Shown: positions 10,138 to 40,870, counted from the stretch's first letter. The stretch is 64,000 nt of DNA from Myxococcales bacterium (GCA_003153015.1 PMBS01000254.1:9568-73567); one strand, 5' to 3'. Notes: a model not told the origin generated them from the sequence alone. Program-made: numbers and translations.

Positions 10138-12375
10138 CTATGACAGCAACGTGGGCTTGCCGAGCAGAGCGGGCAGCGCGCCAGTCGCTGCGGTCTTCGC
10201 CGGGCTTTCGCGCCCCGCCGCCACATATTCGTCCGTGCCCTCCCTCTGAGCCGGCGGCGTTGCCTCGGATTGCCTCGCCAGTTCAATGAAGCGATGCTGG
10301 CTGCGCCGCAATGGATCGCCATTCCCAGTGCGTAGACGTGTATAGGTCCCGTCGGGCAGCAACATGCGCGTCTTCACGTTGTCCTCCAGGCTGATGGTCA
10401 AGATTTCGTCGATCAAGCGGTCGCGGAGCGATTCGTCGTCGACCGGAAACATGACCTCAACACGACGAATGAAGTTGCGCGGCATCCAGTCGGCCGACGA
10501 CAGGTACACCTCACGCCGGCCGCCGGCGTGAAAGTGGAAGATGCGGGCGTGCTCGAGAAAGCGGTCGACCACGCTCAGCACGCGGATGTTCTCGCTCATG
10601 CCTGGAATTCCGGGCCGCAGGCAACAGATCCCGCGCACCAGCAGGTCGATCGACACCCCGTTCTGCGATGCCCGATACAGGGCGCGGATGACGTCCGGGT
10701 CGACCAGTGCATTCATCTTGGCCACGATGCGGCCTGAATGACCGTACATCCGCTCGCGCTCGATGAGTTCGACAATGCGCTCGGCAAGGCCCAGCGGTGC
10801 CACGGTAAAACGCTTCCACGAGGGCGGAGCGGAATATCCAGTCAGCAAATTGAACATGGCCCCGGTGTCGTCGGCAAAAGCCTCGCGCGCAGTGAAAAGC
10901 GAAATGTCCCCGTAGGTGCGAGCGGTAAGCGAATTGTAGTTCCCCGTCGAAAGATGCACGTAGCGACGGATGGCATCCCCCTCGCGGCGCACAACTAACG
11001 ATGCTTTGCAGTGGGTCTTCAGTCCCACCACCCCGTACACCACGTGCACACCCGCCTCTTCCAGCACGCGTGCCCAGGTGATGTTCCGTCTCTCGTCGAA
11101 GCGCGCCCGCAGCTCGATCATGGCGGTAACCTGCTTGCCATTCTCTGCGGCCCGGGTCAGCGCGGTGACGATAGGCGAATCGGCGCTGGTCCGGTACAAG
11201 GTCTGCTTGATGGCAAGAACGTCGGGGTCGTTGGCCGCCGCGGACACGAAATCCACCACGTGATCGAACGATTCGTACGGGAGGTGCAAGAGCACATCGT
11301 GCTCGGAAATGACCCGAAACATGTCCGCGTCGAGAAAGGCCGCGACTGGCTGAGGAGAAAACGCCTCGTCCCTGAAATCCCGCAACTCGTCGCGCGTGGC
11401 CAGCGGAGCCAGATCGGCCAGGTGGAGCGGTCCCTCCGCGGGGTAGACGTCATCCGGCTGCAAGTGCAGTGCCTTGCGCAGAAAGCTCTCTACCTCCGAC
11501 GGCGTGTCATGTGCGAGTTCCAGGCGCACTGCCTGGTTACGCTCGCGGCGACGCAGCTCACGCTGGATGGTCTTCAGCAGATCGTCCGCCTCGTCTTCAT
11601 CCACCGACAGGTCGAAATCGCGTGTCACGCGGAAGCAATGGCAGCCCATCACGCGAAAGCCGGGAAACAGCTCGCCCACGTGCATGGCAATCACGTCCTC
11701 GAGCAGGACGAAGGCGGCCCGATGGGGCGAGGACGGCGGGATCTCCACCAGGCGTTTCAGCACCGCCGGCACTTGCACAACCGCGAAAATGCGCGAGCGG
11801 CGAGCCACGCGCTGGCTCTCCTTGCGCAGGACAATGGCCAGGTTGAGGCTGCGGTTGCGCAGCACCGGAAAGGGGTGGCCCTGGTCCACCGCGAGCGGCG
11901 TCAGCACCGGCCACACGTTACGGCTGAAGTGCGCGTTCAGGAACCCCTTCTGCTCGGGGTTGAGTTGGTCAGGCGCCAGGATGGCCAGGCCCGCTTTGGC
12001 GGTCAGTTGGGGCGCGACAAAGTCGCGGAAGTTGCGGTACAGGGCCGCCACCATGTCGTGAGTGCGCGAGGAGATCGCCGCGAGCTGCTCTCCAGGCAAC
12101 ATCCCGTCTGCACCACTGTCGGCCACACCGCCGGCCAGCAACTGCTTGAGCCCGGCGACCCGCACCATGAAGAACTCGTCCAGGTTGGACGCCACGATGC
12201 CCTGGAACTTGCAACGTTCGGCCAGCGGCACATTCGGGTCACACGCCTCTTCCAATACGCGTCCGTTGAACTCCAACCAGGACAGTTCGCGATTGATGAA
12301 GTGGTGCGGGCACACATCGCTCCCTGCGCTGCCGAGCGCGTGGTCAGTCGAAGCAGAATGGCGCTTGGAAGACAA
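10138..12375 (-). CDS. ppk1: polyphosphate kinase 1
   Basis: 745 aa with PPK N-terminal (FINRELSWLEFNGRVLEEA), PLD-like C1/C2 domains (HxK motifs, VYLSSADWMPRN). Confidence 0.9.
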   Translation of the reverse strand: MSSKRHSASTDHALGSAGSDVCPHHFINRELSWLEFNGRVLEEACDPNVPLAERCKFQGIVASNLDEFFMVRVAGLKQLLAGGVADSGADGMLPGEQLAAISSRTHDMVAALYRNFRDFVAPQLTAKAGLAILAPDQLNPEQKGFLNAHFSRNVWPVLTPLAVDQGHPFPVLRNRSLNLAIVLRKESQRVARRSRIFAVVQVPAVLKRLVEIPPSSPHRAAFVLLEDVIAMHVGELFPGFRVMGCHCFRVTRDFDLSVDEDEADDLLKTIQRELRRRERNQAVRLELAHDTPSEVESFLRKALHLQPDDVYPAEGPLHLADLAPLATRDELRDFRDEAFSPQPVAAFLDADMFRVISEHDVLLHLPYESFDHVVDFVSAAANDPDVLAIKQTLYRTSADSPIVTALTRAAENGKQVTAMIELRARFDERRNITWARVLEEAGVHVVYGVVGLKTHCKASLVVRREGDAIRRYVHLSTGNYNSLTARTYGDISLFTAREAFADDTGAMFNLLTGYSAPPSWKRFTVAPLGLAERIVELIERERMYGHSGRIVAKMNALVDPDVIRALYRASQNGVSIDLLVRGICCLRPGIPGMSENIRVLSVVDRFLEHARIFHFHAGGRREVYLSSADWMPRNFIRRVEVMFPVDDESLRDRLIDEILTISLEDNVKTRMLLPDGTYTRLRTGNGDPLRRSQHRFIELARQSEATPPAQREGTDEYVAAGRESPAKTAATGALPALLGKPTLLS

Positions 12376-12469: not shown

Positions 12470-13969
12470 TCAAGCCACTTCGACCCGCAAACGGCGGCGA
12501 AATACCTGGCGAAACAGCGATGCCTCGCGCATCACGTCCCACATCTCCAGATCCATGGTTCCTCGCGCGGCCAGAGTCAAGACGATCTCGTGCGGCCGGA
12601 CTCGGGCCGTCAAACGTCGCACCGGCCGGGCGTGACTGCGATCGAGCGAGTCTGCCACACGCAGCAGGGTCGCCAGCTTGCGCACGATTACGGCCTCGCT
12701 GCGCGACAGCCCCGCCATGCCGCTGTGGTGGAGGTCAGGGTGGCTTCTGCGGTGATAGCGTGCGATGCGCGCAACCAGATCGCGCTCGCGGTCGGCCAAG
12801 CCCGGAATGTCCGTATTACGCACCAGATACTCCGTGTGACGATGGTGCTTCTGATAGTTCACGGAATTGCCGATGTCGTGCAACCACGCGGCTGCCTCCA
12901 AATACGGACGAACTGCGGCCGGCAAGCGGTGAATCTGCGGGATCTGATCGAACAGGGCCAACGCCAGCGTGGCGACCTGGCGTGCGTGCGCCTCATCGAA
13001 CTGAAACCGGCGCCCAAGCGCAAGCGCCTCATCAGCCAGAGAACGGTCGCGCTGACTGGTGTTGCGACGGTTGAGCAAATCGACCAGCAAACCGTCGCGT
13101 AGGCCTCGATCGACGGCCGTCACCGCATCCAGTGAAAGCCGGCGCGCCAGCGCCTCCAGAATCACAGCGCCAGCGAGCACAATATCGGCACGGGCTGGGT
13201 CAAAACGCTGCCGTCGCTCGCGCGGGCTCATGACCGCCAGTTCCTCGACCGCGCGGCCCAGTTGCTTGACCGTGGCCTGGTTGCTGCCTTCGGCCGCCGT
13301 GTAGTCAACCACCGCCCGGATCGAGCCCGAACTGCCCAACGCCACGCGGGGCGCGCCGGGGAGAACCTTGGGCAGCGACTCGGCCATGGCTTCCCGAGCA
13401 TAACCGCGCGCTAGTCGAAGCTGCTTGCTTGTGGTGGTGTGGGCCAACTTGAACAGCTCGGTCAGGCGAACTGCGCCCATCGCCAGACTCCAGAGGTGGG
13501 TGGGTCGGTCGCCCAACGCCACCGCCACCTCAGTCGATCCCCCGCCGATATCAACACACAGTGATCGGGTTTTGGGCGGCTTGCCGTGCAAGACGCCCAG
13601 GCAAATAAGTCGTGCCTCTTCTTTGCCTGAGATGATCTCCAGATCCAGCTTCGCCTCGCGTTGCACGCGCCGGACGATCTCGTCGCGGTTGCGCGCCTCA
13701 CGCAAGGCACTGGTCGCCACCGCGCGCACCCGAGCGCGATAGCGGCGGCACAGGGATCCATAGCGCCGCAGGGTGGCCACCAACCGCTCGACGGCCGGTC
13801 CCGGAATCGCGCCTCGCATGAACACGTCCTGTCCTGGCCGCACCGGATCCCGTTCCTGATGAGTGATCTCGATACTGCCGTCGGGCAAAGCGCGGCCCAT
13901 CTGCAAGCGCACGGCGTTGGCGCCTACGTCTACGGCTGCGATGATGGAATCAGTTCCTGGTGCTCTCAC
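12470..13969 (-). CDS. ppx: exopolyphosphatase / Ppx-GppA family with C-terminal HD domain
   Basis: Ppx/GppA N-terminus (IAAVDVGANAVRL, ASKH fold motifs) and HD domain. A GTG start at 13969 gives a normal N-terminus; the upstream ATG at 14083 would run through the shared promoter region. Confidence 0.8.
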   Translation of the reverse strand: MRAPGTDSIIAAVDVGANAVRLQMGRALPDGSIEITHQERDPVRPGQDVFMRGAIPGPAVERLVATLRRYGSLCRRYRARVRAVATSALREARNRDEIVRRVQREAKLDLEIISGKEEARLICLGVLHGKPPKTRSLCVDIGGGSTEVAVALGDRPTHLWSLAMGAVRLTELFKLAHTTTSKQLRLARGYAREAMAESLPKVLPGAPRVALGSSGSIRAVVDYTAAEGSNQATVKQLGRAVEELAVMSPRERRQRFDPARADIVLAGAVILEALARRLSLDAVTAVDRGLRDGLLVDLLNRRNTSQRDRSLADEALALGRRFQFDEAHARQVATLALALFDQIPQIHRLPAAVRPYLEAAAWLHDIGNSVNYQKHHRHTEYLVRNTDIPGLADRERDLVARIARYHRRSHPDLHHSGMAGLSRSEAVIVRKLATLLRVADSLDRSHARPVRRLTARVRPHEIVLTLAARGTMDLEMWDVMREASLFRQVFRRRLRVEVA

Positions 13970-14014
13970 GGTGCAAGGCTCCGGCTTGGCTAATCGCCCC
14001 TTGAGGCGTTGTAC

Positions 14015-14043
14015 GAAATTATGACAGGGCAACGTGACAAACC
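14015..14043. promoter_or_regulatory. candidate Pho box (minus-strand reading TTGTTGC-TTGTCAC-CTGTCATaatttc)
   Basis: CTGTCAT is identical to the E. coli half-site; half-sites at 11- and 13-bp spacing. Sits in the divergent region between ppx (minus) and response regulator 2 (plus). Confidence 0.45.
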
Positions 14044-14163
14044 AGCAACAATCGGACGGGCCGGCTCGTCTCCCTTTCCCCATGACCGTCCGCGAGATGG
14101 GAGAAGCACGAAAGTTTCAGCAACTTCACCGTCCCGTAACCTTGGGGCCGTAGCCTGTCGGCA

Positions 14164-14955
14164 ATGGTTGAATCCAGTCGTCGACCCTTGCCCCGCATCC
14201 TGGTCGTCGAGGACGAAGTCGACATCAGCGCCTCGTTGTCGTACAGCCTGAAGGCAATGGGCTATGAAGTGCAGGTCGCGGAACGTGGCGAGGCGGCGCT
14301 GGAGGCGTTGGCCAGCTTTCGTGCCGACTTGGTTCTGCTGGACATCATGCTGCCCGACATATCGGGATTCGATGTCTGCCGCCGCATACGAGCAGCGACT
14401 AGTGGTGTCCAGCCCGTGGTGATCATGCTGACCGCCAAGAGCCAGGAACTGAACCGCGTGGCCGGCTTCGAGGTGGGCGCCGACGATTATGTGACCAAGC
14501 CGTTCAGCATCCGCGAGCTCATGCTGCGCATTGAGGCGCGACTCAAGGCGCGACGGCCAGCGGCTGAGCCGGCCCCGGGATCGAAAGGCGCCAAGAACCC
14601 GGAAGACGAAGCGCGGGTGAAAGTGGGCCCGCTGGAAATCGACCGGGCTGAGCACCGCGTGTTCGTGTCCGGCGAGGAAGTCCGGGTTAGTCCACTGGAG
14701 ATGCGCCTTCTGCTTTTCCTGGTGCGAACCCCGGGCAAGATGCGTACGCGCAAGGAACTGCTGACCGAGGTTTGGGGCTACCATCCGGAGGTATCCAGCC
14801 GCACTCTGGACACGCATGTAAAACGCATCCGTGACAAGTTCGGCGCTTCCGGCGATCTCATTCAGACGGTGCGCGGGGTGGGCTATCGCTTGGCTGTGCA
14901 TGCAGAGCCGGCGGCACAGAAACCAGCAACGGCCACCCCAACGCGCAAAGGCTGA
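14164..14955 (+). CDS. OmpR/PhoB-family response regulator (paralog 2)
   Basis: 263 aa, receiver plus winged helix; highly similar to paralogs 1 and 3 (shared LLDIMLPDISGFDVCRRIRA, VAGFEVGADDYVTKPFS, LLTEVWGYHPEVSSRTLDTHVKRIRDKFG). Confidence 0.85.
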   Translation: MVESSRRPLPRILVVEDEVDISASLSYSLKAMGYEVQVAERGEAALEALASFRADLVLLDIMLPDISGFDVCRRIRAATSGVQPVVIMLTAKSQELNRVAGFEVGADDYVTKPFSIRELMLRIEARLKARRPAAEPAPGSKGAKNPEDEARVKVGPLEIDRAEHRVFVSGEEVRVSPLEMRLLLFLVRTPGKMRTRKELLTEVWGYHPEVSSRTLDTHVKRIRDKFGASGDLIQTVRGVGYRLAVHAEPAAQKPATATPTRKG

Positions 14956-14985: not shown

Positions 14986-15774
14986 TCACCTGCGCCGGGC
15001 GACGCTGCCCGGCGGATCGTGGCGACGGACCCGCTGCTGTGGCTTGGCCAGGCGATAGCCTACGCCATGCACTGTCTGGATCATCCACGCCATGGGCCCG
15101 AACTTGTCGCGGATGCGTTTGATATGGGTGTCGAGGGTACGACTGGAAACATCAGGGCGGTAGCCCCAGACCTCAGTCAGCAACTCGCGGCGCGTGTGCA
15201 TCTTGCCCGGCGAACTGGCCATGTATGCCAGCAGGCGCATTTCTTGGGCGCTGAAGCTGATCTCTTCACCCGCAAGAAAAACCCGGTGGCCTGCTTGATC
15301 GATCTCCAATGGTCCCAGGGTCAGGCGCTCGTCAGTCGTATGCTGGCCCCGGAGTTCGCCGACAGCAGCCAGCTCGGCGGTTTGGCGCGCCCGCAGCCGC
15401 ACCTCGATGCGCAACATCAGCTCGCGCAGGCTGAACGGCTTGGTCACAAAGTCGTCCGCTCCAACCTCGAAACCTGCTACCCGGTCACTTTCTCCGGTCT
15501 TGGCGGTCAGAATGACCACGGCTGGTTGCCGGGCCACCGCGCTGGCACGGATTCGACGACAAACCTCGAAGCCGGAGCAATCGGGCAGGCTGATGTCCAG
15601 CAAGACCAGGTCAGGGCACAAATCGGGAAACGCACGCATGGCCTCTTCACCAGTGCCGACGACCTGCACCTTGTAACCCGCAGCCTCGAGAATGTACGAC
15701 AGCGAACCGCTCAGATTAGGCTCGTCTTGCACGACGAGAATGCGCACGGGCGCCTGGGATGAGATCCCGAGCAT
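14986..15774 (-). CDS. OmpR/PhoB-family response regulator (paralog 3)
   Basis: Convergent with paralog 2; same domain architecture; start placed at MLGISSQ (internal Met). Confidence 0.8.
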   Translation of the reverse strand: MLGISSQAPVRILVVQDEPNLSGSLSYILEAAGYKVQVVGTGEEAMRAFPDLCPDLVLLDISLPDCSGFEVCRRIRASAVARQPAVVILTAKTGESDRVAGFEVGADDFVTKPFSLRELMLRIEVRLRARQTAELAAVGELRGQHTTDERLTLGPLEIDQAGHRVFLAGEEISFSAQEMRLLAYMASSPGKMHTRRELLTEVWGYRPDVSSRTLDTHIKRIRDKFGPMAWMIQTVHGVGYRLAKPQQRVRRHDPPGSVARRR

Positions 15775-15901
15775 GCGGCGACCATATTCGGGGTACCATG
15801 GAGATCGTGTTACAGCACTGCAACGTGATTGTGAATGCAATGTGGAGCCCATGGGCGTCATCGAGCGAATGCGTACCGCGCCATAGGAATGCGACGCGCG
15901 A

Positions 15902-16849
15902 CTACTGCGTCACCTTGATCTTGTATTGCTTGAAAGTCGTGCCACCGCGTGAATCGCGCAGCACGAGCCACAGGTAGACCGGCATTGCCGTATCCGGGGC
16001 CTTCCAGGTATTGCTGGTCGAGATTGCGACTTCGGTGCCTGCCACACCCGTGCGGTCGTGTTCAAACGACCCGGACGTGGCAAACCAGGACATGTACAAA
16101 CTCTCGGTTTGATCCACCAGCGCGTCGCCGCTCGGGTTGAGGACCGGGAACGTCTCGGCCGAGCTCGCCGTGAACCTTGCCTCGAAGACGACCGATTCGC
16201 CCGGCGACACGATCTGGGTGTCGAAATCGAGGTTCAGCCGGGAACCGTCGGCCCTGACAACATCGGTGGAGGCGATGCCGGGATCGTTGTTCGGTTGGTA
16301 CCGCGTGTTGTATTCGTCGACAATAGTCGTTGGAGCATTGGCCAGATTGCAGGCAATTCGCTCAAAGGCAAATCCGGTCAGGCTGCCGGTCGCTAGATCA
16401 GGGAATTTCACCCGAACCGGCAAGTAGTAGCCGCCGGTGCTATCCGGATCGCGCGGTCTGATCGCCGGCTGTCCCGCCGAAGGCGGGGGCGCAATGGGGC
16501 CGAACAGGGTGCAGGCGTTGGTGAGGACCGGGGTCTCGAAGGTCTGTCCCGTGGTCGGGCCAGGCGCGGGAGGATTGCAGGCACTGGCCACCGAATTGTT
16601 CTCGGCCGGGGGTTTGGGTGTCTCGCAAACATCCCAGCCTGCGGTGGCGTCGGTCACAGTTCCCGCGGGCGATGCAAGCAAGAAGGAGTACACCACGTCG
16701 GCCCCTGGCTTGGACTCGGGGGGCTCGCCCCTCACCGCGAGAAGAGCGTAGTCGGTGACGAGCGAGGGAGCCTGCCCCACCTCGGGCTTGCACCCGAGCA
16801 CGGTGCTGGCAAGAGCGACCACAAGAAGAGGTTGTTTTGCGTAGGCCAT
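15902..16849 (-). CDS. lipoprotein of unknown function (paralog of 53535..54557)
   Basis: Signal peptide with lipobox (ASTVLGC); start abuts the stop of the upstream TonB-dependent receptor; shared motifs GGYYLPVRV and WYATAGSFEHD with the cassette-B paralog. Confidence 0.7.
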   Translation of the reverse strand: MAYAKQPLLVVALASTVLGCKPEVGQAPSLVTDYALLAVRGEPPESKPGADVVYSFLLASPAGTVTDATAGWDVCETPKPPAENNSVASACNPPAPGPTTGQTFETPVLTNACTLFGPIAPPPSAGQPAIRPRDPDSTGGYYLPVRVKFPDLATGSLTGFAFERIACNLANAPTTIVDEYNTRYQPNNDPGIASTDVVRADGSRLNLDFDTQIVSPGESVVFEARFTASSAETFPVLNPSGDALVDQTESLYMSWFATSGSFEHDRTGVAGTEVAISTSNTWKAPDTAMPVYLWLVLRDSRGGTTFKQYKIKVTQ

Positions 16850-19501
16850 CTAGAACTCCAGGCGTGCACCCGCAACCGCAAGTATCGGCAGTCCGATGAT
16901 GTAGCTTCGCTGCTTGTAGTCCTGACTGTAAATAGTCTCCTCGGGATTCTTGCGATTAGTAACGTTTTGCACGTCGATGAACATGCTCAGCTTCGTCCGC
17001 CGCATGACGAATGCCTTTTCGCCACGGAGATCCAGTTGGTAGAAGGCCGGGATGCGAATGGAGTTGTGCGCTCCGAAGACGGGCTCATAGTAGCCGTTTC
17101 TGCCGAGATAGCTGTCCACCACCGGTGTGCGCGGCATCCCGCTGGAGTAGCGAAAACGTCCACCTACCACGAAGTCCCTGCCCAACTCGTAGCTGGCGAG
17201 GAGAGCCAGCACGTGGGTCTGGTCATAGTCGAACAAGCGAAATGCCTGATCAGGATGATCGCGGCGCTCGCTGCGTGACAGGGTGTAGGTCGCCCAGCCG
17301 AAGAAGCCCTTGAACAGTTCCTGTCGAAGCAGAACTTGGAGTCCAAACACGCGACCGGTTCCATCCTGGGCCAGCGCCTGTCCCACTGGCGGGGATGGAC
17401 TTTCGCTGCGTGAGACGAGGTCGTACAGTTTCTTGTAGAAACCCACGGATTCCAAGGTCAAGGTCGGACGCAGCTTGAACGAGAACCCACCGGTCAGGTG
17501 TACGGCATATGACCCCACAATTGACGGGTTGCCGAATACCGGGGACATGTCCGCGGGATCGGGCGGCTGGCCGTATACTCCCGCGCCGCTGGTGAGGGTG
17601 AGCTTGGGGGTAGGTCGCCACGCGATCTGCAAACGCGGATTGGGAAAGTTGCGCAGCACCGGGACGCTAATCGGATTGGGGGGAGCGTCGAGCCGAGAAT
17701 AGCCGACCGGGGGCGCGATATTGCTGAACGGAAGGCGATGATCCCCTTCGATCCAAGTGGGTTCGAAACGCAAGCCCGGCGTCACGGTCCAGTTGCCGAG
17801 CTTGATGTCCACCGTGGCATAGCTGGCCACGCTGAAGACAGTCACGTTCCAGTTGTCGGATGCGGTCTCGGATGGGGGGCGTTGGCCGAAGACGACGATG
17901 TCTCCTTCCCGGGGCGGCTGGTTCACTGAACCGTTCCGGCTGAGTTGGACTTGCTGTCCCTGTACATCCATGCCGACCAAGAGCACCGCCGTCGGATGAA
18001 TGCGCCGGCGCAGACTTCCGCGCAAAGCGTAGGACAAGGTCTGCGTGTCGAGCTGCGTGCTTTCATCGCCGAAAGTGTCTCGCTCGGCATTGTGGTCGAT
18101 GCCCATCGAGGGAGTCACGCGCACGCTGGAGCCATCGTCGAACAAGCGGCTGTAGCTGACGAAGATGCGGCGAAAAGAGGTGTCATTGTTCTGCGTGCGC
18201 AGATCTGCGGGGTCGCTGGCCGGAATGGTTCGTTGCAGGTGATCGTCCGACGCGAGAAAAGTCGCGGCGATCTCCTCGTCCTTGCGCAGGCTCAGGGAGG
18301 CCCGCGCCTGGTAGTCGTCGTAGCGCGGGATAGGAAATGAGTCGCCGATGTCGGCCGAGGTGACTCCCGATATCACGCGGTCGAGGTAGCTGATACGTCC
18401 AGCCACGGCCAAGCGCAGCCGTGGGGTCACTGCGGCTGACACCTCGGCCGAGGTGTCCATGATGTCGCCGGCAACATAGCCGTGCACGCCGGACGGGGGA
18501 AGCTGGCCGAGTTCGATGCGCACCAGACCGCCCAGCCCGCGTCCGTAGTCGGCGCCGTACGCCCCGGGCGAGAGATCGATGGACTTGACCAGATCGGAGT
18601 TCACCGTCGAGCGTAGACCGCCCATGTGGTACAGGCTGGGAATCTCCACCCCCTCAACCACCACCCTGGTCTCCTTGGGCGAGGAGCCCCAGACCACAAG
18701 CTGGCCTGAACCGAAGCTGGCGCGTCCCACCCCCGGCAGGTTCTGCACAACCTTGAGGGTGTCGCCCTGCGTGCCAGGAACCTTGCGCGCCTCTTCGGTG
18801 CGGATGCGGGTTTCCACCGCCTCCTTCTTGATGCGGGCCGCACGTACGATGACTTCCTCGTCGACGTCTTCCTCCCTCTGTTCGACGTAGTACTTCATGG
18901 TGCGCTTCTGGCTCGGCCGGATGGTTTCGTCGGTCAGCACAGTGACGAGCCGCGGATGTCGGATCTCAACCTTGTGCGCGCCAGGAGGCAGATCAGTGAA
19001 CGAGAAGGCCCCGGCCGCATCGGTCTTGGTGGCCAAGTCCAGGTCCTTGATACGCACGGTCACATCGGCCATGGGCTGCTTTTTGAATCGATCCAGAACC
19101 ACGCCCTCGAAGTTCACCTGTGGTCCGAGTGACACCATCTTGGTCACAATGGTGAAGTCGTAGCGGTAAGTGATCTTGACGGGAATGGCTTGTCCTCCGG
19201 CCTCCGCCGGGGTGAAGAGGAACTGCCGGGCAGCAGCAACCGCGGCGCTGTCGAAATCGGACCCGCCGCTTTCGACAACCTCGACCCCGCCCACCTTGCC
19301 GTCGTCCCCCACCTCGATCGAAAGCAGCACGCGTGCGGTGATGCCGGCGTCGTGCTTGTCCTTGGGGTATTCGGCCGGGACGAAATGAATCAGGCGCGGG
19401 GGCTTGGTGATGGCGACCGTTTCATCGGCACGCGAAGGCCCCGGGCAGACCGGGAACCCGGCGCCCACCAGAGCGGCCACAAAGACAAGGCGGTGGTGCA
19501 A
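16850..19501 (-). CDS. TonB-dependent receptor-like outer-membrane protein with N-terminal TonB-C-like domain and carboxypeptidase-regulatory-like domain
   Basis: 883 aa with signal peptide. The TonB_C signature (AEYPKDK...ARVLLSIEVGDDGKV...SGGSDFDSAAVAAARQFLFTPAE...PVKITYRYDF) is followed by a CarboxypepD_reg-like beta-sandwich, a plug-domain motif (GTQGDTLKVVQNLPGVGR) and a long barrel ending in C-terminal Phe. Confidence 0.8.
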   Translation of the reverse strand: MHHRLVFVAALVGAGFPVCPGPSRADETVAITKPPRLIHFVPAEYPKDKHDAGITARVLLSIEVGDDGKVGGVEVVESGGSDFDSAAVAAARQFLFTPAEAGGQAIPVKITYRYDFTIVTKMVSLGPQVNFEGVVLDRFKKQPMADVTVRIKDLDLATKTDAAGAFSFTDLPPGAHKVEIRHPRLVTVLTDETIRPSQKRTMKYYVEQREEDVDEEVIVRAARIKKEAVETRIRTEEARKVPGTQGDTLKVVQNLPGVGRASFGSGQLVVWGSSPKETRVVVEGVEIPSLYHMGGLRSTVNSDLVKSIDLSPGAYGADYGRGLGGLVRIELGQLPPSGVHGYVAGDIMDTSAEVSAAVTPRLRLAVAGRISYLDRVISGVTSADIGDSFPIPRYDDYQARASLSLRKDEEIAATFLASDDHLQRTIPASDPADLRTQNNDTSFRRIFVSYSRLFDDGSSVRVTPSMGIDHNAERDTFGDESTQLDTQTLSYALRGSLRRRIHPTAVLLVGMDVQGQQVQLSRNGSVNQPPREGDIVVFGQRPPSETASDNWNVTVFSVASYATVDIKLGNWTVTPGLRFEPTWIEGDHRLPFSNIAPPVGYSRLDAPPNPISVPVLRNFPNPRLQIAWRPTPKLTLTSGAGVYGQPPDPADMSPVFGNPSIVGSYAVHLTGGFSFKLRPTLTLESVGFYKKLYDLVSRSESPSPPVGQALAQDGTGRVFGLQVLLRQELFKGFFGWATYTLSRSERRDHPDQAFRLFDYDQTHVLALLASYELGRDFVVGGRFRYSSGMPRTPVVDSYLGRNGYYEPVFGAHNSIRIPAFYQLDLRGEKAFVMRRTKLSMFIDVQNVTNRKNPEETIYSQDYKQRSYIIGLPILAVAGARLEF

Positions 19502-20236
19502 TCAATCCCCCAGCTCAAAACGGCGGGCCAAGACATAGGTCCCTCCCGCGACCGGCTTGCCACAGGCCATGGCTGGCCGGAAGCGCCACTGTTTGACCGC
19601 GGCCACCGCGGCCGCGTCGAGTTCGGGGGAGACGCTGGCCAGCACCTCGACCGCCATCACCGAGCCGTCCGCGCCGACCACGATCTTCAGCTTGAGCTTG
19701 CCTTCGATCCCCTCGGAGCGTGCTGCAGCCGTGTACTCGATCTCGGTCTTGAATACGGGCTCAGGCTTGGAAGGCTCGTCCGTGCAGCGCTCCTCGATGT
19801 TCGGCCCTGCCCCCAGCTCCTGGCGCTGGCGGTGGTGATGCGCCTCGGGTTCGAAGGTGGCCACCTTGGTGGGCGCCACGGCCTGGGGGGCCCGCACGAT
19901 CGGGATTGCCACGGCATCGCCGATATCCTCGTTGCTCATGGCGATCTCGGTCGGCATGACCATGGTAGCCACCTTGGCTGCCGCAACTGGGGCCGCGACC
20001 GGCATGAGCTTGGGCGCGGCCGCGAGTTTCTGCTCCTTCGGCTTCGCATCCACCTTGGCCAGCTTGGGCGGAGCCTTGGGCTTGAGCGGCGCCTCCTTCT
20101 TCTTCTTCTTCTTGGCCTCCTCCTGCAACTGCACAACGTAGGTCTTGCCCGAGGCGCGGTGTTGCGATGCCGTGAGCAGGGCAAACGCAAACCCGGCGTG
20201 AATGACCATCGAAATAGCGACCGTGGACTTCTTCAC
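19502..20236 (-). CDS. tonB: TonB family energy transducer
   Basis: N-terminal TM, Lys/Pro/Ala-rich spacer, C-terminal TonB_C domain. Confidence 0.75.
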   Translation of the reverse strand: MKKSTVAISMVIHAGFAFALLTASQHRASGKTYVVQLQEEAKKKKKKEAPLKPKAPPKLAKVDAKPKEQKLAAAPKLMPVAAPVAAAKVATMVMPTEIAMSNEDIGDAVAIPIVRAPQAVAPTKVATFEPEAHHHRQRQELGAGPNIEERCTDEPSKPEPVFKTEIEYTAAARSEGIEGKLKLKIVVGADGSVMAVEVLASVSPELDAAAVAAVKQWRFRPAMACGKPVAGGTYVLARRFELGD

Positions 20237-20280: not shown

Positions 20281-20700
20281 CTACTCGCCTCCCACCTGCA
20301 TGACGTTGATTGCGAACTTTGTGACACCGGCGACTTTGGCGAGATCCATGACGTGAACCACCTGGCCGTGGGCCGCCTCTTTGTCAGCGCTGATGACCAC
20401 GCTGATTTCCGGATCGGCCGCCACCACCTCCTTCATGTGGCCTCCCAATTCTTGTTCGGTGACCGGCTGTTCGTTCCAGCGCAGCTCTCCATTCTTGAAC
20501 AACTGCACGGTGTTGGGCTTTTCCGCGGTGCCGTCGCTCATCTTTGCCCTGGGCAGGCTGACCTTCAGGGTCTGCGCCACGATGTATGTCGACGCCACCA
20601 TCAGGATGACCAACAACACCAGGCATACATCGACCAGCGGGGTCACATTGATGGCGGAAATCGTCTTGGCCCGCCCCACACCTGCCATCGTGCCAGCCAT
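20281..20700 (-). CDS. exbD: biopolymer transport protein ExbD/TolR
   Basis: 139 aa with single TM (INVTPLVDVCLVLLVILMV) and ExbD periplasmic domain. Confidence 0.8.
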   Translation of the reverse strand: MAGTMAGVGRAKTISAINVTPLVDVCLVLLVILMVASTYIVAQTLKVSLPRAKMSDGTAEKPNTVQLFKNGELRWNEQPVTEQELGGHMKEVVAADPEISVVISADKEAAHGQVVHVMDLAKVAGVTKFAINVMQVGGE

Positions 20701-21437
20701 CAGCCATTCACCTCGGCCGGGCGCAGCCTGGGAGACTCCCCGATCTCATCCAGCGCGGCAGCTGATGCCTTGTGCGTGTTCTTCGGGTTCCTGGTCGACT
20801 TCATGACCGCCAAGACCTGATTGGCGAGGGCGGCCGAGTTTTCTTCGATGTCATTGCACTTCTTCTGGAACAGGTTGAAGGCGACCACCGCGGGAATGGC
20901 GACCAAGATGCCGATGGCGGTGGCGATGAGGGCCTCGGAGATGCCGCTCATCACGTTGCCCATGCCGCCCGCGCCACCCGCGGCGGCCATGTTGGCCGAG
21001 GCAGCCCCCAATTCCTTGAAAGCCGCAACCACGCCGAGCACAGTGCCGAACAGGCCAATGAATGGGGCGTTGTTGCCCAGGGTGCCGAGGAATATGAGCC
21101 CGCTCTCGAAGACCTTGCGGCGTTGGCGGATGCCTTTCTGCACGATCTCCTGCAGGGAATCGGGACCGTCGGCGTAGTAGTCCAGGGCGTCGCGCAGGAT
21201 CTCGGCCTCGACGGCCCGCATTTCCTCCAGCTCCCGCTTGGCACCGGCCACATCCCCGGCGCGCAGTCGCTTAGCCAACGCATTGCCGGTCGCGATCATG
21301 TCCAGGCGCCGCTTGCGGAAGTACCACCAGCGCTCGATCACCACGCCGACCGAATAGACCGACAGCGCGAGCAGAATGTAGAGGACCGCGGCAGCCCCGG
21401 TTTGGGCAACAAATACCAGTTTGTGCATCAGCAGCAT
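20700..21437 (-). CDS. exbB: MotA/TolQ/ExbB proton-channel protein
   Basis: 245 aa, three TM segments, conserved C-terminal TM2/3 region (GLIFLGTLGNNAPFIGLFGTVLGV...SEALIATAIGILVAIPAV). Confidence 0.8.
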   Translation of the reverse strand: MLLMHKLVFVAQTGAAAVLYILLALSVYSVGVVIERWWYFRKRRLDMIATGNALAKRLRAGDVAGAKRELEEMRAVEAEILRDALDYYADGPDSLQEIVQKGIRQRRKVFESGLIFLGTLGNNAPFIGLFGTVLGVVAAFKELGAASANMAAAGGAGGMGNVMSGISEALIATAIGILVAIPAVVAFNLFQKKCNDIEENSAALANQVLAVMKSTRNPKNTHKASAAALDEIGESPRLRPAEVNG

Positions 21438-21453: not shown

Positions 21454-22374
21454 TTAGTAGTCAAACACCTGCGCCTGTACTCCCGCCCCCTGTCCGTGGG
21501 GAAAACGTGTGTCGAGATCGGTCGATTGTCCGGAAGCTTGCAACAGGGGGTCGACCCCGTTGTTGGTGAAGACGCGAACCAGCCAGCGCGCGGTGGTCTC
21601 GGCGCACAGAGAGAAAGTGTCGACGCGCACGATGTAGCGTCCATTGGGAGCCGTGGTGGGGAAGATCACATTCTCCGCCCGGCGCCCGTCGATCACACAC
21701 GTGCTGTTGGAGTCGAAATCGAGGTAGCCCGCCTGCTTTCCGTCGTCGACACTCGCGCCGACTGTCCCGAGCGGCAGACCAGATGGCTTTCGCGACCAGA
21801 TCTCGTTTACCCCTGCATCCCCATCGCTGGGCAACTGCACGTGCAGGTCGAGATCGGCTTCAGTGTCCCAATCCAGGCTGATGACCAGGGCGCCCGCGGT
21901 CCGCGGCTGGTCCATGGTCATCGGTTGCAACCTCGCCGGCCCCACCTGTCCATCGCGCGTGGTGGCGCGAAAGGCCAGAAACAGATTGCCGGCGTCCCCT
22001 CCAGAGGGCGTTCGCGGGGAGAAGGACGCAGAGAATGAAAAGGTGTAGTTGCCGGTGACGTTATAGTCGATGTCCTGCACGGGCACGACCCAGTGACCCA
22101 CGTCGCCCTGCAACCCAACGAGCACCGCGGTCGAGTTGGGGCCGACGCTGCCCGATATCTTCTTGTTGGCAACGCCCGGGAATAGGTTGGGGTTTTGCAT
22201 CGTTATATTTGCGACTGCTGGCGCAGGATCGCGATCGATGGTGTCAATGGGACCAGGAATGTATTGCGCGCCCTGGATCCTGAACAGCGCCTGCTGGCCA
22301 GAACTCGGGTCAGTGCCGGAACAGCCCCCGCAGAGCAGTCCAGCCGCAAGAAGACTGAGCGCGAGAGGGCGCAT
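21454..22374 (-). CDS. lipoprotein of unknown function (paralog of 49919..50860)
   Basis: Lipobox LLCGGC; shares motifs (ALVISLDWD..DLDLHVQ, YIVRVD.FSLC) with the cassette-B paralog. Confidence 0.65.
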   Translation of the reverse strand: MRPLALSLLAAGLLCGGCSGTDPSSGQQALFRIQGAQYIPGPIDTIDRDPAPAVANITMQNPNLFPGVANKKISGSVGPNSTAVLVGLQGDVGHWVVPVQDIDYNVTGNYTFSFSASFSPRTPSGGDAGNLFLAFRATTRDGQVGPARLQPMTMDQPRTAGALVISLDWDTEADLDLHVQLPSDGDAGVNEIWSRKPSGLPLGTVGASVDDGKQAGYLDFDSNSTCVIDGRRAENVIFPTTAPNGRYIVRVDTFSLCAETTARWLVRVFTNNGVDPLLQASGQSTDLDTRFPHGQGAGVQAQVFDY

Positions 22375-24056
22375 CAGAAGGCGACCTCCGTGCGCAGGGT
22401 GAACGCGTTGTTCTTCAAATCCGCCGGCATGCCACTGGCATTCCGGCCCTGGTTATCGAACACCCAGTCGTACTGGGCCACCAGCCGGCCGGACAGCGCA
22501 CCCGCCTTTCCGATCAACGCAACTGCCGCCGACACCGTCGAAATCGCCTGGCTGGAGGGAACCAGCACCCCTGCCTGGCGGTCGGTGCTGTCCAAGTCGG
22601 GATTGTAGTAGTCGTAGCGCAATCCCAGCTTGAAATGCCGGCCCAGCTCCTGGACAGCAGCCACGTAGTAGCCCCACTCGCGCAGATCGCGACCGAGCGG
22701 ACCATAGGGATCGGCAATCAAGAATCCCCGATCCAGATTGTTGGCACGGGCAAGCTCGGCGTAAATCGTTGTGCTGGCGTTGTTCCAATAGCGCAGCGAA
22801 ACCAGAGCATCTACGCCAATCGCATTGCGGCTGAAGTTCTGCGATGGCTGACCCGAGGTTCCTGGCGACACGATCAACTCGTTGGAATCGTACCGGCCGT
22901 TCTCGTTGAGATCCTGCCAAGTCAAAGTCGGTTTTGTGGGAGGCGCTCCCTTGTGGAATCCCTTGCCGGTCAGGCCCGAGAATCCCGCCTGGACCGACAC
23001 CTCGTCCGAGATTTGGGACACAATCCCAAGTCGCCCTGTGATGTCTTTGGCCTGGTTGGGATCGCGCACGGGGAAGGTGTTCTCGCCTAGCGGCTCGCCG
23101 TTCTGCACCGCTAGGGCATAGCGAACGAAGCGCCAGCCGCCTGACAGTCGCAGCCCCAGGTCGTACTCGCCCGGGAAAAGCGCCCTCACAAAGGCGCTGC
23201 GTTCGGCGAAGAGCCTGTCACGATCGCTCTGCAGCACCTCGAAGCCGAACGGAATCTTGAAAAGTCCTGCGGTCAGGCCCACCAGCGGGATGGAACCACC
23301 CGGCCATTTGACCGTGGCCTCCACATTCATGGGCCGCACCTGGGCACCGTTGACTGTGTTGGCGTCGATCTCGACGACTCCGGCGAAATACCTCTGGTCC
23401 ACCGCCGTGCTCAGGCGCGCGCGACGGAGCAGGAATCGATTGTCATTCAGCGGGGCGCCGGTGGAGGTATTGAGCTGGTCTTCTGAAGTCTGCCTTACGT
23501 TGAGATCGGCCTGCACAAAGCCAGAAATCGTGAGCCATTCTAGTCTTGTCAGGCGAGGGTCGGCCTTCACCGCAACTTCGACTTCAGCGCGCGCGTTGGC
23601 CTGGGCACGCGCCTCGGCTGCCTTGCGCTCCGCCTGCTCCTCGGTCAGCTTGCGCTGGAATTCCTCGCGCAGGCTGGCCAGCTCGGCGCGTTGCTGCGCC
23701 AACTGGGCGGCAATGTCCTCCGTCTCTCTGCGAGGCTCGTCGCTGGTTGTCGGAGGGTTGTCGGCCGGAACCGGATCCGGCACCTGGGCAAAAGGGGGAG
23801 TCTGCCCAAGTGCCGGTCTCGCAAGCGCGAGCGGTGCCCCAGCGCAAAGCAGTCCCAGAACCAGGGCCCGCTTCTTTGGCCAGCCGAGTCGTAGCCAGAT
23901 GGGCGCGGCTGGCTTGCGGAAAACGCTAGGGTACACCGTTGCTTCTCTCGAATCTACATGGCCGAGCAGCTTGGATAGGCGATCGGCGGATTGGGACCGG
24001 GATCGAGCGCGGATACAGTGGACGGCACGGGCGCGTTGATGATGGCAACGTGGCAT
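22374..24056 (-). CDS. outer-membrane beta-barrel porin-like protein with N-terminal coiled-coil (possibly phosphate-selective porin O/P family); start uncertain
   Basis: Charged coiled-coil region followed by alternating beta-strand pattern, ending in terminal Phe (LRTEVAF). Paralog of 48336..49919. The annotated ATG overlaps the upstream small lipoprotein by ~100 nt, so the true start is probably a non-ATG codon near 23956. Confidence 0.55.
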   Translation of the reverse strand: MPRCHHQRARAVHCIRARSRSQSADRLSKLLGHVDSREATVYPSVFRKPAAPIWLRLGWPKKRALVLGLLCAGAPLALARPALGQTPPFAQVPDPVPADNPPTTSDEPRRETEDIAAQLAQQRAELASLREEFQRKLTEEQAERKAAEARAQANARAEVEVAVKADPRLTRLEWLTISGFVQADLNVRQTSEDQLNTSTGAPLNDNRFLLRRARLSTAVDQRYFAGVVEIDANTVNGAQVRPMNVEATVKWPGGSIPLVGLTAGLFKIPFGFEVLQSDRDRLFAERSAFVRALFPGEYDLGLRLSGGWRFVRYALAVQNGEPLGENTFPVRDPNQAKDITGRLGIVSQISDEVSVQAGFSGLTGKGFHKGAPPTKPTLTWQDLNENGRYDSNELIVSPGTSGQPSQNFSRNAIGVDALVSLRYWNNASTTIYAELARANNLDRGFLIADPYGPLGRDLREWGYYVAAVQELGRHFKLGLRYDYYNPDLDSTDRQAGVLVPSSQAISTVSAAVALIGKAGALSGRLVAQYDWVFDNQGRNASGMPADLKNNAFTLRTEVAF

Positions 24057-24385
24057 TGATCCACAGTCAGGCCGGTGCAGATGTCGACTGTAGGCCCGCC
24101 GTCGTTGGGAGTGACGGCGGGAACGTCCGTCCCGGTGACCATGTCAGAAGCGCCGTCTGGCGGGCTGATGGAGGGGCCGTCCACGCTCGCATCCGCCACA
24201 GCGCCACCCATTCCACCCGCGGCATCAATGCCAGCTCCACCGGAGCCAGAAACGCCGCCCGTGGCGATCGCACCGCCGCTGCCGATGCTCGCGACGTCTG
24301 TGTTATTGGTGCTGCTGCAAGCAACCCAGCCGGCCAGTACCAGTACCAGTGCCAGTGCCAGTGTAGAAGTCTTATAGAGATTCAT
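23954..24385 (-). CDS. small Gly/Ala-rich lipoprotein
   Basis: Signal peptide with lipobox (LAGWVAC); same position as the 88-aa lipoprotein 48073..48336 in cassette B. Confidence 0.5.
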   Translation of the reverse strand: MNLYKTSTLALALVLVLAGWVACSSTNNTDVASIGSGGAIATGGVSGSGGAGIDAAGGMGGAVADASVDGPSISPPDGASDMVTGTDVPAVTPNDGGPTVDICTGLTVDQCHVAIINAPVPSTVSALDPGPNPPIAYPSCSAM

Positions 24386-35799: not shown

Positions 35800-35978
35800 C
35801 CGAAGACGTCAGCTTTCCGTCGGGGAGAGATACATCCTGCGAGATTACTCATGCAGAAAATAGTAAGCAATATTTCTAAACATCCATGGCCGATGATCCG
35901 AACCTCCTTCTGTGACCGCTGGTTCGCAGTTCAGCAAACAGCACGAGCGCTGTGCCCCGCGACAGGAGGAGTTCCACC

Positions 35979-40594: not shown

Positions 40595-40870
40595 CCTTCC
40601 TTTGCAAAGAGTTAACAAATCGAGGTCATCGACGTCGATGACGCTAGCAACTGAAAGCTGCGACTTCCGTCGGTGCGTTCGCTCTGGGTTGTGCGGGGCA
40701 GCGAGGGATTTCGCAAGAGCGTCAGTTATCCGTTGCGAATGGTTGGCAAAGCCCTCACACACATCCCGCTTGCAAGCTGCTATTCAGTGTGCCGCCGGAA
40801 TAGGGGAAGCGGCCAAGGGGGTGCGCGACCAAGCCGGCGCGGAAAACGAACGATTCAAGGAGGCAGCAAA

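Follow-up and report, generated by a model that had tools for sequence, protein, structure and literature searches.

The 64,000-nucleotide window analyzed here, from a Myxococcales bacterium, encodes two TonB-dependent receptors that are 59% identical end to end in a full-length alignment. Receptor A (positions 16850..19501, minus strand) has 883 aa, a TTG start, and a C terminus reading ...GARLEF; receptor B (50872..53535, plus strand) has 887 aa, an ATG start, and the C terminus ...MEF. In both, a signal peptide is followed by a TonB C-terminal domain (TonB_C), a CarboxypepD_reg domain, a putative TonB box, a plug, and a barrel of 22 strands. The order signal peptide, TonB_C, CarboxypepD_reg, plug, and barrel had been proposed in the sequence-only reading, and it held for both paralogs in sequence and in predicted fold.

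The TTG start of receptor A abuts the stop codon of tonB, and a GGGGGA run resembling a ribosome-binding site (RBS) lies just 5′ of it. The signal peptide of this receptor, read by eye, covers residues 1 to 25 (19427..19501, minus strand; MHHRLVFVAALVGAGFPVCPGPSRA, followed by DE). Behind the TonB_C module comes the CarboxypepD_reg domain (18884..19117, minus strand; residues 129 to 206), an N-terminal extension of the Oar/SusC type that scored above the cutoff with PF13620/PF13715 and is a beta-sandwich with a pLDDT of ∼83 in the full-length AF2 model. A putative TonB box, EEVIVRA (18839..18859, minus strand; residues 215 to 221), is placed by its motif and by its position between CarboxypepD_reg and the plug. 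The plug (18497..18805, minus strand; residues ∼233 to 335) matched PF07715 above the cutoff (E = 6.3e-7), as did the 22-strand beta-barrel (16853..18496, minus strand; residues 336 to 883) with PF00593 (E = 4.8e-18); the barrel is also seen in the AF2 model, and the Foldseek matches of the receptor include Fiu, PqqU, FrpB, and FecA (E ∼1e-20). In receptor B, CarboxypepD_reg (51268..51501, plus strand; residues ∼133 to 210) was assigned by Pfam, the putative TonB box EEAVVRA (51526..51546, plus strand; residues 219 to 225) by alignment to receptor A, the plug by a Pfam match above the cutoff, and the barrel by the 59% identity to receptor A. Both proteins have N-terminal n, h, and c regions (by eye) and a C-terminal aromatic residue (...LEF or ...MEF). 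Both genes encode genuine TonB-dependent transporters (TBDTs) of the Oar/SusC class with a CarboxypepD_reg extension.

Each receptor gene is part of a larger cassette. Directly upstream of receptor A, where the sequence-only reading had placed a canonical TonB, we indeed found one (19502..20236, minus strand; 244 aa): its N-terminal helix bears S-x3-H, a spacer rich in Lys and Pro comes next, and TonB_C stands at the C terminus. It is preceded on the same strand by ExbD (20281..20700; PF02472, E = 2.6e-28), ExbB (20700..21437; PF01618, E = 1.4e-28), a lipoprotein that we call lipo1 (21454..22374; 306 aa, no family), and a Porin_O_P-like outer-membrane protein (22374..24056; PF07396, E = 2.9e-5) that has a coiled-coil stretch at its N terminus. 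This porin-like protein probably begins downstream of the longest-ORF start. A weakly PstS-like secreted protein (24382..25665, minus strand; TIGR02136, E = 3.2e-5, below the cutoff) heads cassette A, and a second lipoprotein, lipo2 (15902..16849, minus strand; 315 aa, assigned to no family in Pfam or NCBIfam), follows the receptor. Cassette B, on the plus strand, has counterparts of the weakly PstS-like protein (46721..48046; 30% identical), the porin-like protein (48219..49919; 44%), lipo1 (49919..50860; 313 aa, 39%), and lipo2 (53535..54557; 340 aa, 40%), and its receptor comes without exbB-exbD-tonB.

The N-terminal domain (NTD) of receptor A spans residues 33 to 118 (19148..19405, minus strand) and was identified by Pfam, AF2, and Foldseek; that of receptor B spans residues 37 to 121 (50980..51234, plus strand). 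The Pfam profile PF03544 (TonB_C; cutoff, 24.6 bits) matched residues 43 to 117 of receptor A (E = 2.8e-13; 50.5 bits) and residues 47 to 120 of receptor B (E = 7.2e-13; 49.2 bits), in both cases over profile positions 3 to 78 of 79, and TIGR01352 (tonB_Cterm; cutoff, 27.1 bits) scored 50.9 and 48.8 bits, respectively. A direct sequence search found the solved TonB C-terminal domains 6fip/6i97 (E = 1.3e-4). When an AF2 model of receptor A residues 29 to 126 (pLDDT, 83.5) was compared with the PDB by Foldseek, the best 16 matches were all C-terminal domains of TonB or its homologues, among them the FusB structures 7zc8 and 9hi3, and TolA scored far lower than the TonB domains. The best match was 6i97_D, Pseudomonas aeruginosa TonB bound to FoxA (E = 4.7e-6; TM scores, 0.81/0.88; root mean square deviation [RMSD], 1.4 Å). 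The earlier assignment of this segment to TonB_C, made from its residue pattern, is thus confirmed by the domain scan of both receptors, by the predicted fold, and by structural alignment to TonB C-terminal domains. A different fold, such as a generic ferredoxin-like one, was looked for as the outcome that would speak against the assignment and was ruled out, as every significant Foldseek match was a TonB-type C-terminal domain.

In alignment with TonB domains, the NTD retains the YP motif (residues 45 and 46 of receptor A) and the conserved aromatic positions of the core. It also retains the exposed edge strand, PVKITYRYDF (contained in PVKITYRYDFTI, residues 107 to 118 of receptor A), through which TonB itself pairs with a TonB box. 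The position aligned to Q160 of Escherichia coli TonB, a residue implicated in TonB-box recognition, is an invariant Val in the receptor domains. Since the mature N terminus of the receptor has a complete TonB_C fold, the domain hangs in the periplasm beneath the barrel, N-terminal to both CarboxypepD_reg and the putative TonB box. The linker that follows it is short and flexible, and it is longer and Pro-rich in a sister subfamily described below.

The fold, YP motif, aromatic core, and edge strand are shared with the C-terminal domains of TonB, HasB, and FusB. Unlike those proteins, the receptor domain has no inner-membrane helix, SHLS motor-contact motif (S-x3-H), or periplasm-spanning spacer; it directly follows a cleavable signal peptide, by which it is exported, and it is a covalent part of the outer-membrane partner. 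Having neither membrane helix nor spacer, it cannot itself deliver the force of the motor. The energy-transducer features being absent, the receptor is not a TonB, and the automatic name “TonB family protein” is misleading. In databases, the fused receptors are named “TonB family protein” (JGI) or “TonB-dependent receptor” (NCBI); the present assignment corrects what is a systematic misnaming in metagenomes.

The same fusion, anticipated as something to be sought in other genomes, was found in >2,000 protein clusters at 90% identity, which fall into two subfamilies that are ∼30% identical. Among the matches listed, PF03544 was present in 120 of 120 (of >1,030) and in 117 of 120 (of >1,289). 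The NTD and CarboxypepD_reg stood at the N terminus in ∼92 of the best 150 representatives at 50% identity, three representatives had two tandem TonB_C copies ahead of CarboxypepD_reg, and a TonB_C match was present in all 38 diverse full-length representatives. Carriers include cultured Anaeromyxobacter and Vulgatibacter, and the layout also occurs in complete genomes. The conserved unit is exbB-exbD-tonB-receptor-lipoprotein, with tonB and the receptor as separate genes in all relatives; a locus in A. oryzae lacks an adjacent tonB. Beyond this core, the gene neighborhood differs between the subfamilies, and a Sigma70_r2 gene lies beside some loci of the sister subfamily.

The NTDs of both subfamilies form one clade, apart from the TonB domains encoded next to them, which argues that the fusion is old. 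In domain alignments, NTDs are 37 to 46% identical between subfamilies, compared to 28 to 36% identical to their cognate TonB domains. We therefore rejected a recent duplication of the neighboring TonB domain, as the NTDs are monophyletic across subfamilies and resemble one another more than they do the TonBs encoded beside them. In a set of relatives selected on full length, the entropy of the NTD was 0.71 bits, versus 1.05 bits for the barrel and 1.03 bits for CarboxypepD_reg; the plug is the most conserved segment of the receptor. The layout is common and ancient in myxobacteria, and as judged from these sequence comparisons, the fusion is ancient, of single origin, and under purifying selection.

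Our literature searches returned no description of this fusion, but coverage of subscription journals was thin, so that this absence is not proof. In a 2019 survey covering 34,893 TBDTs, a myxobacteria group listed five architectures of the N terminus, none of which has TonB_C (PMC6434023). The sequence-only reading had called the fusion an uncharacterized architecture; this stands as far as the published record goes, but the layout is common and present in databases. We regard it as a sixth N-terminal architecture beyond the published five (PMC6434023). The same reading had described TonB_C as a domain that normally belongs to the energizer, which is too narrow in this phylum: M56-peptidase and tetratricopeptide repeat (TPR) proteins of Myxococcota with 4 to 5 TonB_C repeats appeared in the same search, and the gliding proteins GltG and GltJ also carry a TonB C-terminal domain (PMC5349195, PMC11761067). 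GltG/GltJ and other such carriers show that the phylum redeploys this domain for periplasmic contacts with outer-membrane proteins; those proteins are anchored in the inner membrane and linked to a motor, whereas the receptor domain is on the outer-membrane side.

Among known receptors, Oar of Myxococcus xanthus and the SusC type resemble the present pair in having CarboxypepD_reg before the TonB box, plug, and 22-strand barrel, and Oar also shares the myxobacterial lineage and a dedicated Ton system nearby (PMC6434023). Oar has been reported with the CarboxypepD_reg extension only; in both receptors studied here, CarboxypepD_reg is not the sole extension, as TonB_C precedes it. The fusion also bears on why SusC/Oar-type transporters require N-terminal extensions. 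A second relationship is to MxcH, the myxochelin receptor. Positions ∼1 to 90 of the MxcH family model NF038079 aligned to the NTDs of receptor A (E = 4e-19) and receptor B (E = 4.2e-22; model positions 1 to 88), and the start of the model also aligned to the neighboring TonB C-terminal domain (E = 2.7e-12). The present receptors are not MxcH, since they score 68.1 and 78.0 bits against a cutoff of 925 bits with only model positions 1 to 90 aligned, and a model of 792 positions is too short to accommodate a matching body that contains CarboxypepD_reg. Judging by the family model, MxcH-type receptors evidently begin with the same module, so that the type of the myxochelin siderophore receptor apparently belongs to the fused set. 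As the module heads a siderophore-receptor model and the neighborhoods differ between subfamilies, it appears to be generic rather than substrate specific.

The conserved partner encoded downstream of the receptor is lipo2. In both subfamilies, a lipo2-type lipoprotein of 315 to 387 aa directly follows the receptor at the loci compared, while lipo1 is conserved only in the subfamily of the window. A strand-like motif (LRVLAVRAEPPE or ALLAVRGEPPE) is strongly conserved in lipo2 ∼12 residues past the lipid anchor. The residue at position +2 is an invariant Lys in the subfamily of the window and Ser, Thr, or Gly in the sister subfamily; a Lys at this position retains lipoproteins of M. xanthus in the inner membrane (PMC3222651). 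Two roles were considered for lipo2. That of an inner-membrane lipoprotein in a pair of reversed polarity was rejected, as it would fit only the subfamily of the window, which is where the +2 Lys is found, and not the relatives in general. As a free TonB-box mimic, its N-terminal LLAVRGEP is unconvincing and kept as no more than a lead, since this segment has rather the look of the opening hairpin strand of a folded domain.

Transport by TonB is understood as a handshake between two partners, in which a motor-linked TonB domain of the inner membrane grips the TonB box on the transporter. In a large and conserved set of Myxococcota transporters, both halves of this handshake are present in one polypeptide, with a dedicated TonB still encoded next door. 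Whatever the role of the domain, the fusion offers a natural experiment in the control of TonB-box access. As candidate roles, the sequence-only reading had put forward an autoinhibitory decoy, a dimerization module, or a periplasmic binding module. The box itself is nearly invariant within each subfamily: V218, V219, R220, and A221 (receptor A numbering) among relatives of the window's receptors and EAVVVG as the motif of the sister subfamily. The retained YP motif, aromatic core, and exposed edge strand lead us to take the NTD as a strand-capturing module that acts by beta-augmentation. Our preferred reading, put forward tentatively and from sequence features, is that the NTD may be a tethered module of this kind, with its own TonB box as default ligand, serving as a latch or for hand-off. 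EEVIVRA, ∼100 residues downstream in the same chain, would be the most probable ligand, since tethering would keep the local concentration of the strand very high and the linkers would be long enough for the loop to close. The NTD would capture the box after it leaves the plug and thereby act as a latch or holder. A captured box might be either shielded from the neighboring dedicated TonB or presented to it, and if presented, the scarce motor-coupled TonB could engage by strand exchange.

Several observations stand against this tethered latch. A cis complex that never opened would be in competition with the genuine TonB and might be counterproductive, and the Val at the counterpart of E. coli TonB Q160 is also unfavorable. 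In the full-length AF2 model, the TonB box (residues 212 to 221) has a pLDDT of <50 and forms no strand, so that no cis complex is confidently predicted; this is weak evidence from a model that was built from 41 sequences and in which the N-terminal half of the plug is also poorly modeled. Alternative ligands are at hand in the conserved downstream lipoprotein and in the ECF sigma modules adjacent in some relatives. In an alternative to which we give a smaller but real chance, the NTD would hold a strand from a second envelope protein, which could be the conserved lipoprotein encoded downstream, an anti-sigma-like protein, a different outer-membrane protein, or a polypeptide undergoing import. 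Being N-terminal to the TonB box, the NTD would move when TonB pulls and could pass on the pull or a conformational signal. In the transducers FecA, FpvA, and FoxA, too, an additional globular domain in the periplasm precedes the TonB box, touches a second protein, and is displaced when TonB acts, and the NTD occupies the position of the STN domain through which FecA acts on FecR; a model of FecA in which the N-terminal domain relays TonB force has been described (bioRxiv 10.1101/2025.01.06.631622). The domain of those transducers is STN, whereas the present one has the TonB C-terminal-domain fold, and the Pfam scan gave no STN (PF07660) match in either receptor. A relay is further favored by the constant presence of lipo2 with its strand-like motif after the receptor in both subfamilies, by an ECF sigma gene and a ∼250-aa protein adjoining the module at three loci (L025-L027; Anaeromyxobacter and a deltaproteobacterial MAG), and by the structural match to FusB, a homologue of TonB that uses its C-terminal domain to bind a protein substrate. 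It is weakened by the lipo2 motif, which resembles the leading beta-hairpin strand of a globular domain more than a free TonB box, by the absence of the +2 Lys from the sister subfamily, and by the siderophore context in which MxcH-type receptors appear to carry the domain. No sigma factor or sigma/anti-sigma pair was found beside either cassette among the window genes scanned. One specific form of the relay, which we consider doubtful, would place the two grips in series: TonB pulls the box, and the NTD moves along while gripping a strand of lipo2 or of another outer-membrane protein. If true, this would be a previously undescribed extension of the Ton force chain, with one Ton motor actuating two outer-membrane parts, or a form of cell-surface signaling independent of STN.

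The NTD could also keep the cognate TonB parked at its own receptor, raising the efficiency or specificity of coupling, which we think unlikely. TonB homodimerization is established in vivo and counts in favor of such docking. So do the strand-paired dimers of TonB C-terminal domains in crystals (e.g., 1u07, among our Foldseek matches), the exbB-exbD-tonB set that almost always precedes the receptor, and the identity between NTD and cognate TonB (28 to 36% by domain alignment; 43% over a 63-residue BLAST segment). The domain is nevertheless kept in receptor B and in the cassettes orthologous to it, which have no TonB of their own, and at the A. oryzae locus, where no tonB is adjacent, and since NTDs are more conserved between subfamilies than TonB domains are, there is no sign of pairwise codivergence. 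We find it improbable that the domain is a structural anchor or spacer with no gating role, binding peptidoglycan or stabilizing the periplasmic face or, through receptor-receptor contacts by strand swapping, an oligomer. There is little documentation that TonB domains bind peptidoglycan, and the conservation of the edge strand and of the TonB-type aromatic residues exceeds what a spacer needs. An anchor does fit the general use of TonB-type domains as periplasmic modules in the phylum (M56-peptidase and TPR proteins, GltG/GltJ; PMC11761067) and the tandem TonB_C pair ahead of CarboxypepD_reg in three representatives. The remaining explanation, that the end of the upstream tonB was read into the receptor or that the profile match arose by chance, has a negligible probability. 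The tonB stop does directly abut the receptor start in the same frame. A read-through or fusion artefact is nonetheless ruled out by the TGA stop codon, the run resembling an RBS, and the signal peptide that the receptor itself carries, by paralog B, which has the domain with no tonB upstream, and by the recurrence of the layout in complete genomes and across thousands of separate assemblies; a chance match is at odds with E values of 1e-13 and TM scores of 0.81/0.88 to solved TonB domains.

As for the substrate, the window has a series of genes linked to phosphate: ppk, ppx, two PhoB-like regulators, an NPP phosphodiesterase, a metallophosphoesterase, PstS, and Porin_O_P. Because of these phosphate-acquisition neighbors, cassettes A and B are probably phosphate-starvation uptake systems, which suggests that this receptor type was recruited for phosphate scavenging in peat-fen myxobacteria.

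The two receptor genes named in the sequence-only reading, receptor A (16850..19501, minus strand; 883 aa, TTG start) and receptor B (50872..53535, plus strand; 887 aa, ATG start), exist as described there, and their products are 59% identical end to end. Both begin with a plausible Sec signal peptide, end in an aromatic residue (...LEF in A and ...MEF in B), and are members of the TonB-dependent transporter (TBDT) superfamily. Their N-terminal segment belongs to the TonB_C domain family, as that reading had proposed: PF03544 matches residues 43 to 117 of receptor A (E = 2.8e-13) and 47 to 120 of receptor B (E = 7.2e-13), each at ∼50 bits against a cutoff of 24.6 and over essentially the entire profile, and TIGR01352 (tonB_Cterm) concurs. 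Searched alone, the segment of this N-terminal domain (NTD) retrieves the solved TonB C-terminal domains 6fip/6i97 (E = 1.3e-4). In both proteins, Pfam places CarboxypepD_reg/CarbopepD_reg_2 and then Plug after TonB_C, with a TonB_dep_Rec barrel match following in receptor A, in keeping with the module order first suggested. A TonB-box-type motif, nearly invariant in alignments of relatives, lies between CarboxypepD_reg and the plug (EEVIVRA, 215-221, in A; EEAVVRA, 219-225, in B).

An AlphaFold2 model of the NTD (residues 29 to 126, 19 homologous segments; mean pLDDT, 83.5) has the TonB C-terminal domain's order of strands and helices, and its best 16 Foldseek matches in the PDB are all TonB or TonB homologues. 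Structural comparison bears out the assignment, the top match being the FoxA-bound TonB of Pseudomonas aeruginosa (6i97_D; E = 4.7e-6; TM, 0.81/0.88; rmsd, 1.4 Å). The best 16 also include Neisseria meningitidis TonB, FusB, Vibrio TonB2, and Escherichia coli TonB (1u07, plus 2gsk and 2grx, its complexes with BtuB and FhuA); TolA domains score far below TonB. Together, the Pfam and Foldseek results rule out a different fold or an absent TonB_C match. In the full-length receptor model (pLDDT, 77.9), the NTD, β-sandwich, and barrel are each confident, pLDDT is <50 for the TonB box and the initial part of the plug, and the receptor body resembles the classical 22-strand transporters Fiu, PqqU, FrpB, and FecA (Foldseek E, ∼1e-20). 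These results show a complete TonB C-terminal-domain fold, on a periplasmic tether, in a transporter that retains a TonB-box-type motif and, usually, a dedicated Ton motor.

The gene immediately upstream of receptor A does encode a canonical TonB (19502..20236, minus strand), with S-x3-H in an N-terminal helix, then a spacer rich in Lys and Pro, and TonB_C at the C terminus; ExbD and ExbB genes lie upstream of it. No base separates the TGA stop of this tonB from the receptor's TTG, shortly upstream of which is a GGGGGA run. An artefact of this junction is ruled out by the receptor's own signal peptide, by paralog B, in which the domain occurs without a preceding tonB, and by related loci in which tonB and receptor are separate genes; we consider it extremely improbable that the NTD is an artefact. 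The NTD has no membrane helix and no spacer to cross the periplasm and so cannot work as an energy transducer coupled to a motor. In this the receptors differ from TonB, and to call them "TonB family protein," as automatic naming does, is misleading. Nor are they STN-type transducers, and compared with the Oar-type architecture they have one domain more.

The search of other genomes suggested at the outset found the same fusion in abundance. Receptor A retrieved >1,030 clusters at 90% identity, and all 120 clusters listed carry PF03544 and transporter domains; its close relatives come from uncultured Myxococcales/Polyangia genomes, mostly fen and soil metagenome assemblies. When 1.84 billion 50%-identity representatives were searched exhaustively with the segment spanning NTD and CarboxypepD_reg, 1,374 proteins reached E ≤ 1e-10; among the best 150 representatives, this two-domain module is N-terminal in 36 full-length proteins and 56 N-terminal fragments. 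Diverse full-length representatives (29 to 60% identity) matched TonB_C in 38 of 38 cases and CarboxypepD_reg in 37 of 38. P0212, only ∼30% identical to receptor A, heads a sister subfamily of >1,289 clusters (PF03544 in 117 of the 120 clusters listed), which includes the cultured Anaeromyxobacter oryzae, other Anaeromyxobacter, and Vulgatibacter incomptus. The sister-subfamily proteins P0337 (775 aa), P0384 (741 aa), and P0390 (709 aa) have no TonB_C match and are shorter by 90 to 150 residues, either because their starts were mis-called or they are fragments, or because they are natural variants lacking the NTD, which would be useful for comparison.

A neighbor-joining tree groups the NTDs of the two subfamilies in a single clade apart from the cognate TonB domains, and identities are 37 to 46% between NTDs, 28 to 36% between an NTD and its own TonB, and 28 to 32% between TonBs of the two subfamilies. 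This pattern places the fusion before the subfamily split and rules out a recent copy of the neighboring TonB domain. Among relatives chosen by full-length similarity, the NTD (mean column entropy, 0.71 bits) is better conserved than the barrel (1.05) and CarboxypepD_reg (1.03); only the plug and TonB-box region are more conserved. The NTD is ancient and under selection. Two tandem TonB_C-like domains precede CarboxypepD_reg and the plug in the relatives P0176 (1028 aa), P0223 (1039 aa), and P0216 (600-aa fragment), either as a true module duplication or as tonB-receptor gene fusions or read-throughs. Judging from their domain matches, P0137, P0139, P0170, P0214, and P0225 from the representative search, with four to five tandem TonB_C domains fused to a BlaR1-type M56 peptidase or TPR repeats, show reuse of TonB's C-terminal domain as a general periplasmic module outside TonB.

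The first ∼90 positions of the NCBIfam equivalog model for MxcH, the myxochelin receptor, align to the receptor NTDs (E = 4e-19 and 4e-22) and also to the C-terminal domain of the neighboring TonB (E = 2.7e-12). By this family model, the MxcH siderophore receptors evidently start with the same module; receptors A and B fall short of the model's cutoff. A 2019 survey of 34,893 TBDTs distinguished five N-terminal architectures, TonB_C not among them (PMC6434023), and reviews and targeted literature searches, with subscription journals mostly outside their coverage and a prior mention possible, gave no description of the fusion. The claim that it is not a characterized architecture agrees with this, and Pfam-based annotation shows the architecture plainly. 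It is an uncharacterized variant of a known system, widespread rather than unique. The original observation is confirmed; its interpretation is supported in part, namely, for domain assignment and architecture.

Cassettes of the window's subfamily encode, in order, a weakly PstS-like protein, a Porin_O_P-like outer membrane protein with a coiled-coil N terminus, lipoprotein 1, (ExbB-ExbD-TonB), the receptor, and lipoprotein 2, a synteny kept across a dozen related genomes; cassette B is a paralog of cassette A that lacks the Ton genes. The sister subfamily retains only the core exbB-exbD-tonB-receptor-lipoprotein, and at the A. oryzae locus the core is reduced to receptor-lipoprotein. In every locus examined from both subfamilies (∼30% identical), a lipoprotein of 315 to 387 aa lies 3′ of the receptor, that of the sister subfamily being homologous to lipoprotein 2 (15902..16849, minus strand, and 53535..54557, plus strand, in the window; L022:10600-11724, L023:10643-11764, L025:9598-10710, L027:9573-10640, and L028:9594-10721 in loci of relatives). 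Both groups share a motif ∼12 residues past the lipid anchor (LRVLAVRAEPPE / ALLAVRGEPPE) and a C-terminal one (SWF.T.G ... VVRD.RGG); profile searches assigned lipoprotein 2 to no Pfam or NCBIfam family. Its Cys-Lys-Pro is invariant in the window's subfamily and not in the sister subfamily; +2 Lys marks lipoproteins for inner-membrane retention in Myxococcus xanthus (PMC3222651). At three sister-subfamily loci, from two Anaeromyxobacter assemblies and one deltaproteobacterial MAG, the module adjoins genes for a caspase-like protein (Peptidase_C14), an ECF sigma factor, and an unannotated protein of ∼250 aa that is a candidate anti-sigma (L025:297-4856, L026:297-4856, and L027:1636-5011), a neighborhood that hints at cell-surface signaling without an STN domain.

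The question of mechanism posed by these receptors is clear and testable. The exposed edge strand of TonB serves β-augmentation, and alignments show that the NTD retains this strand, the YP motif, and the aromatic core positions, so most likely it still captures a short strand. Its default ligand would be the TonB box on the same chain, ∼100 residues away beyond one rigid ∼35-Å sandwich and two flexible linkers; by rough estimate, this geometry would allow loop closure and give a very high local concentration. On these grounds we tentatively favor a latch or hand-off that would control access of the dedicated TonB, although the full-length AlphaFold2 model gives no confident cis docking of the box, a cis complex, if permanent, would be in competition with TonB, and conserved alternative partners are present. 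By analogy with the FecA signaling domain acting on FecR (bioRxiv 10.1101/2025.01.06.631622), the NTD might instead pass force or a signal on to the lipoprotein or to some other partner, which we regard as possible but doubtful. Docking of the dedicated TonB through heterodimerization seems unlikely, and a structural or cell wall-anchoring role distinctly improbable.

Phosphate genes are dense in the window: an NPP-type phosphodiesterase, polyphosphate kinase, exopolyphosphatase (Ppx/GppA), two PhoB-like response regulators, a metallophosphoesterase with PKD/Big_9, a histidine phosphatase, and a genuine binding protein of the PstS type (6988..8892, 10138..12375, and 12470..14083, minus strand; 14164..14955, plus; 14986..15861, minus; 55295..58192, plus; 61155..61643, minus; 61955..63022, plus). 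This density suggests that both cassettes belong to a Pho-type regulon, and from their neighbors they are probably Pho-type scavenging systems. The two response regulators are convergent and have no adjacent kinase. The secreted proteins heading the cassettes (24382..25665, minus, and 46721..48046, plus; 427/441 aa, 30% identical) have a Cys-rich C-terminal tail, resemble PstS only faintly (TIGR02136, E = 3e-5 and 1.5e-3, well under the cutoff), and may be divergent phosphate or organophosphate binders. The Porin_O_P-like paralogs (22374..24056, minus, and 48219..49919, plus; 44% identical) carry before the barrel a ∼60-residue charged, coiled-coil-like stretch weakly matching the Sas-6 oligomerization domain and TolA; phosphate porins do not usually have a periplasmic extension of this kind. 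Between the cassettes lie large, mostly family-less, apparently secreted proteins (27152..29170, 31299..33629, 35952..36731, 40673..42694, and 42949..46467, plus; 36812..38239 and 38243..39880, minus), with PKD/Big_9 domains, an RCC1-repeat β-propeller, a Dictyostelium-type Cys repeat, and a 1172-aa Cys-rich protein among them.
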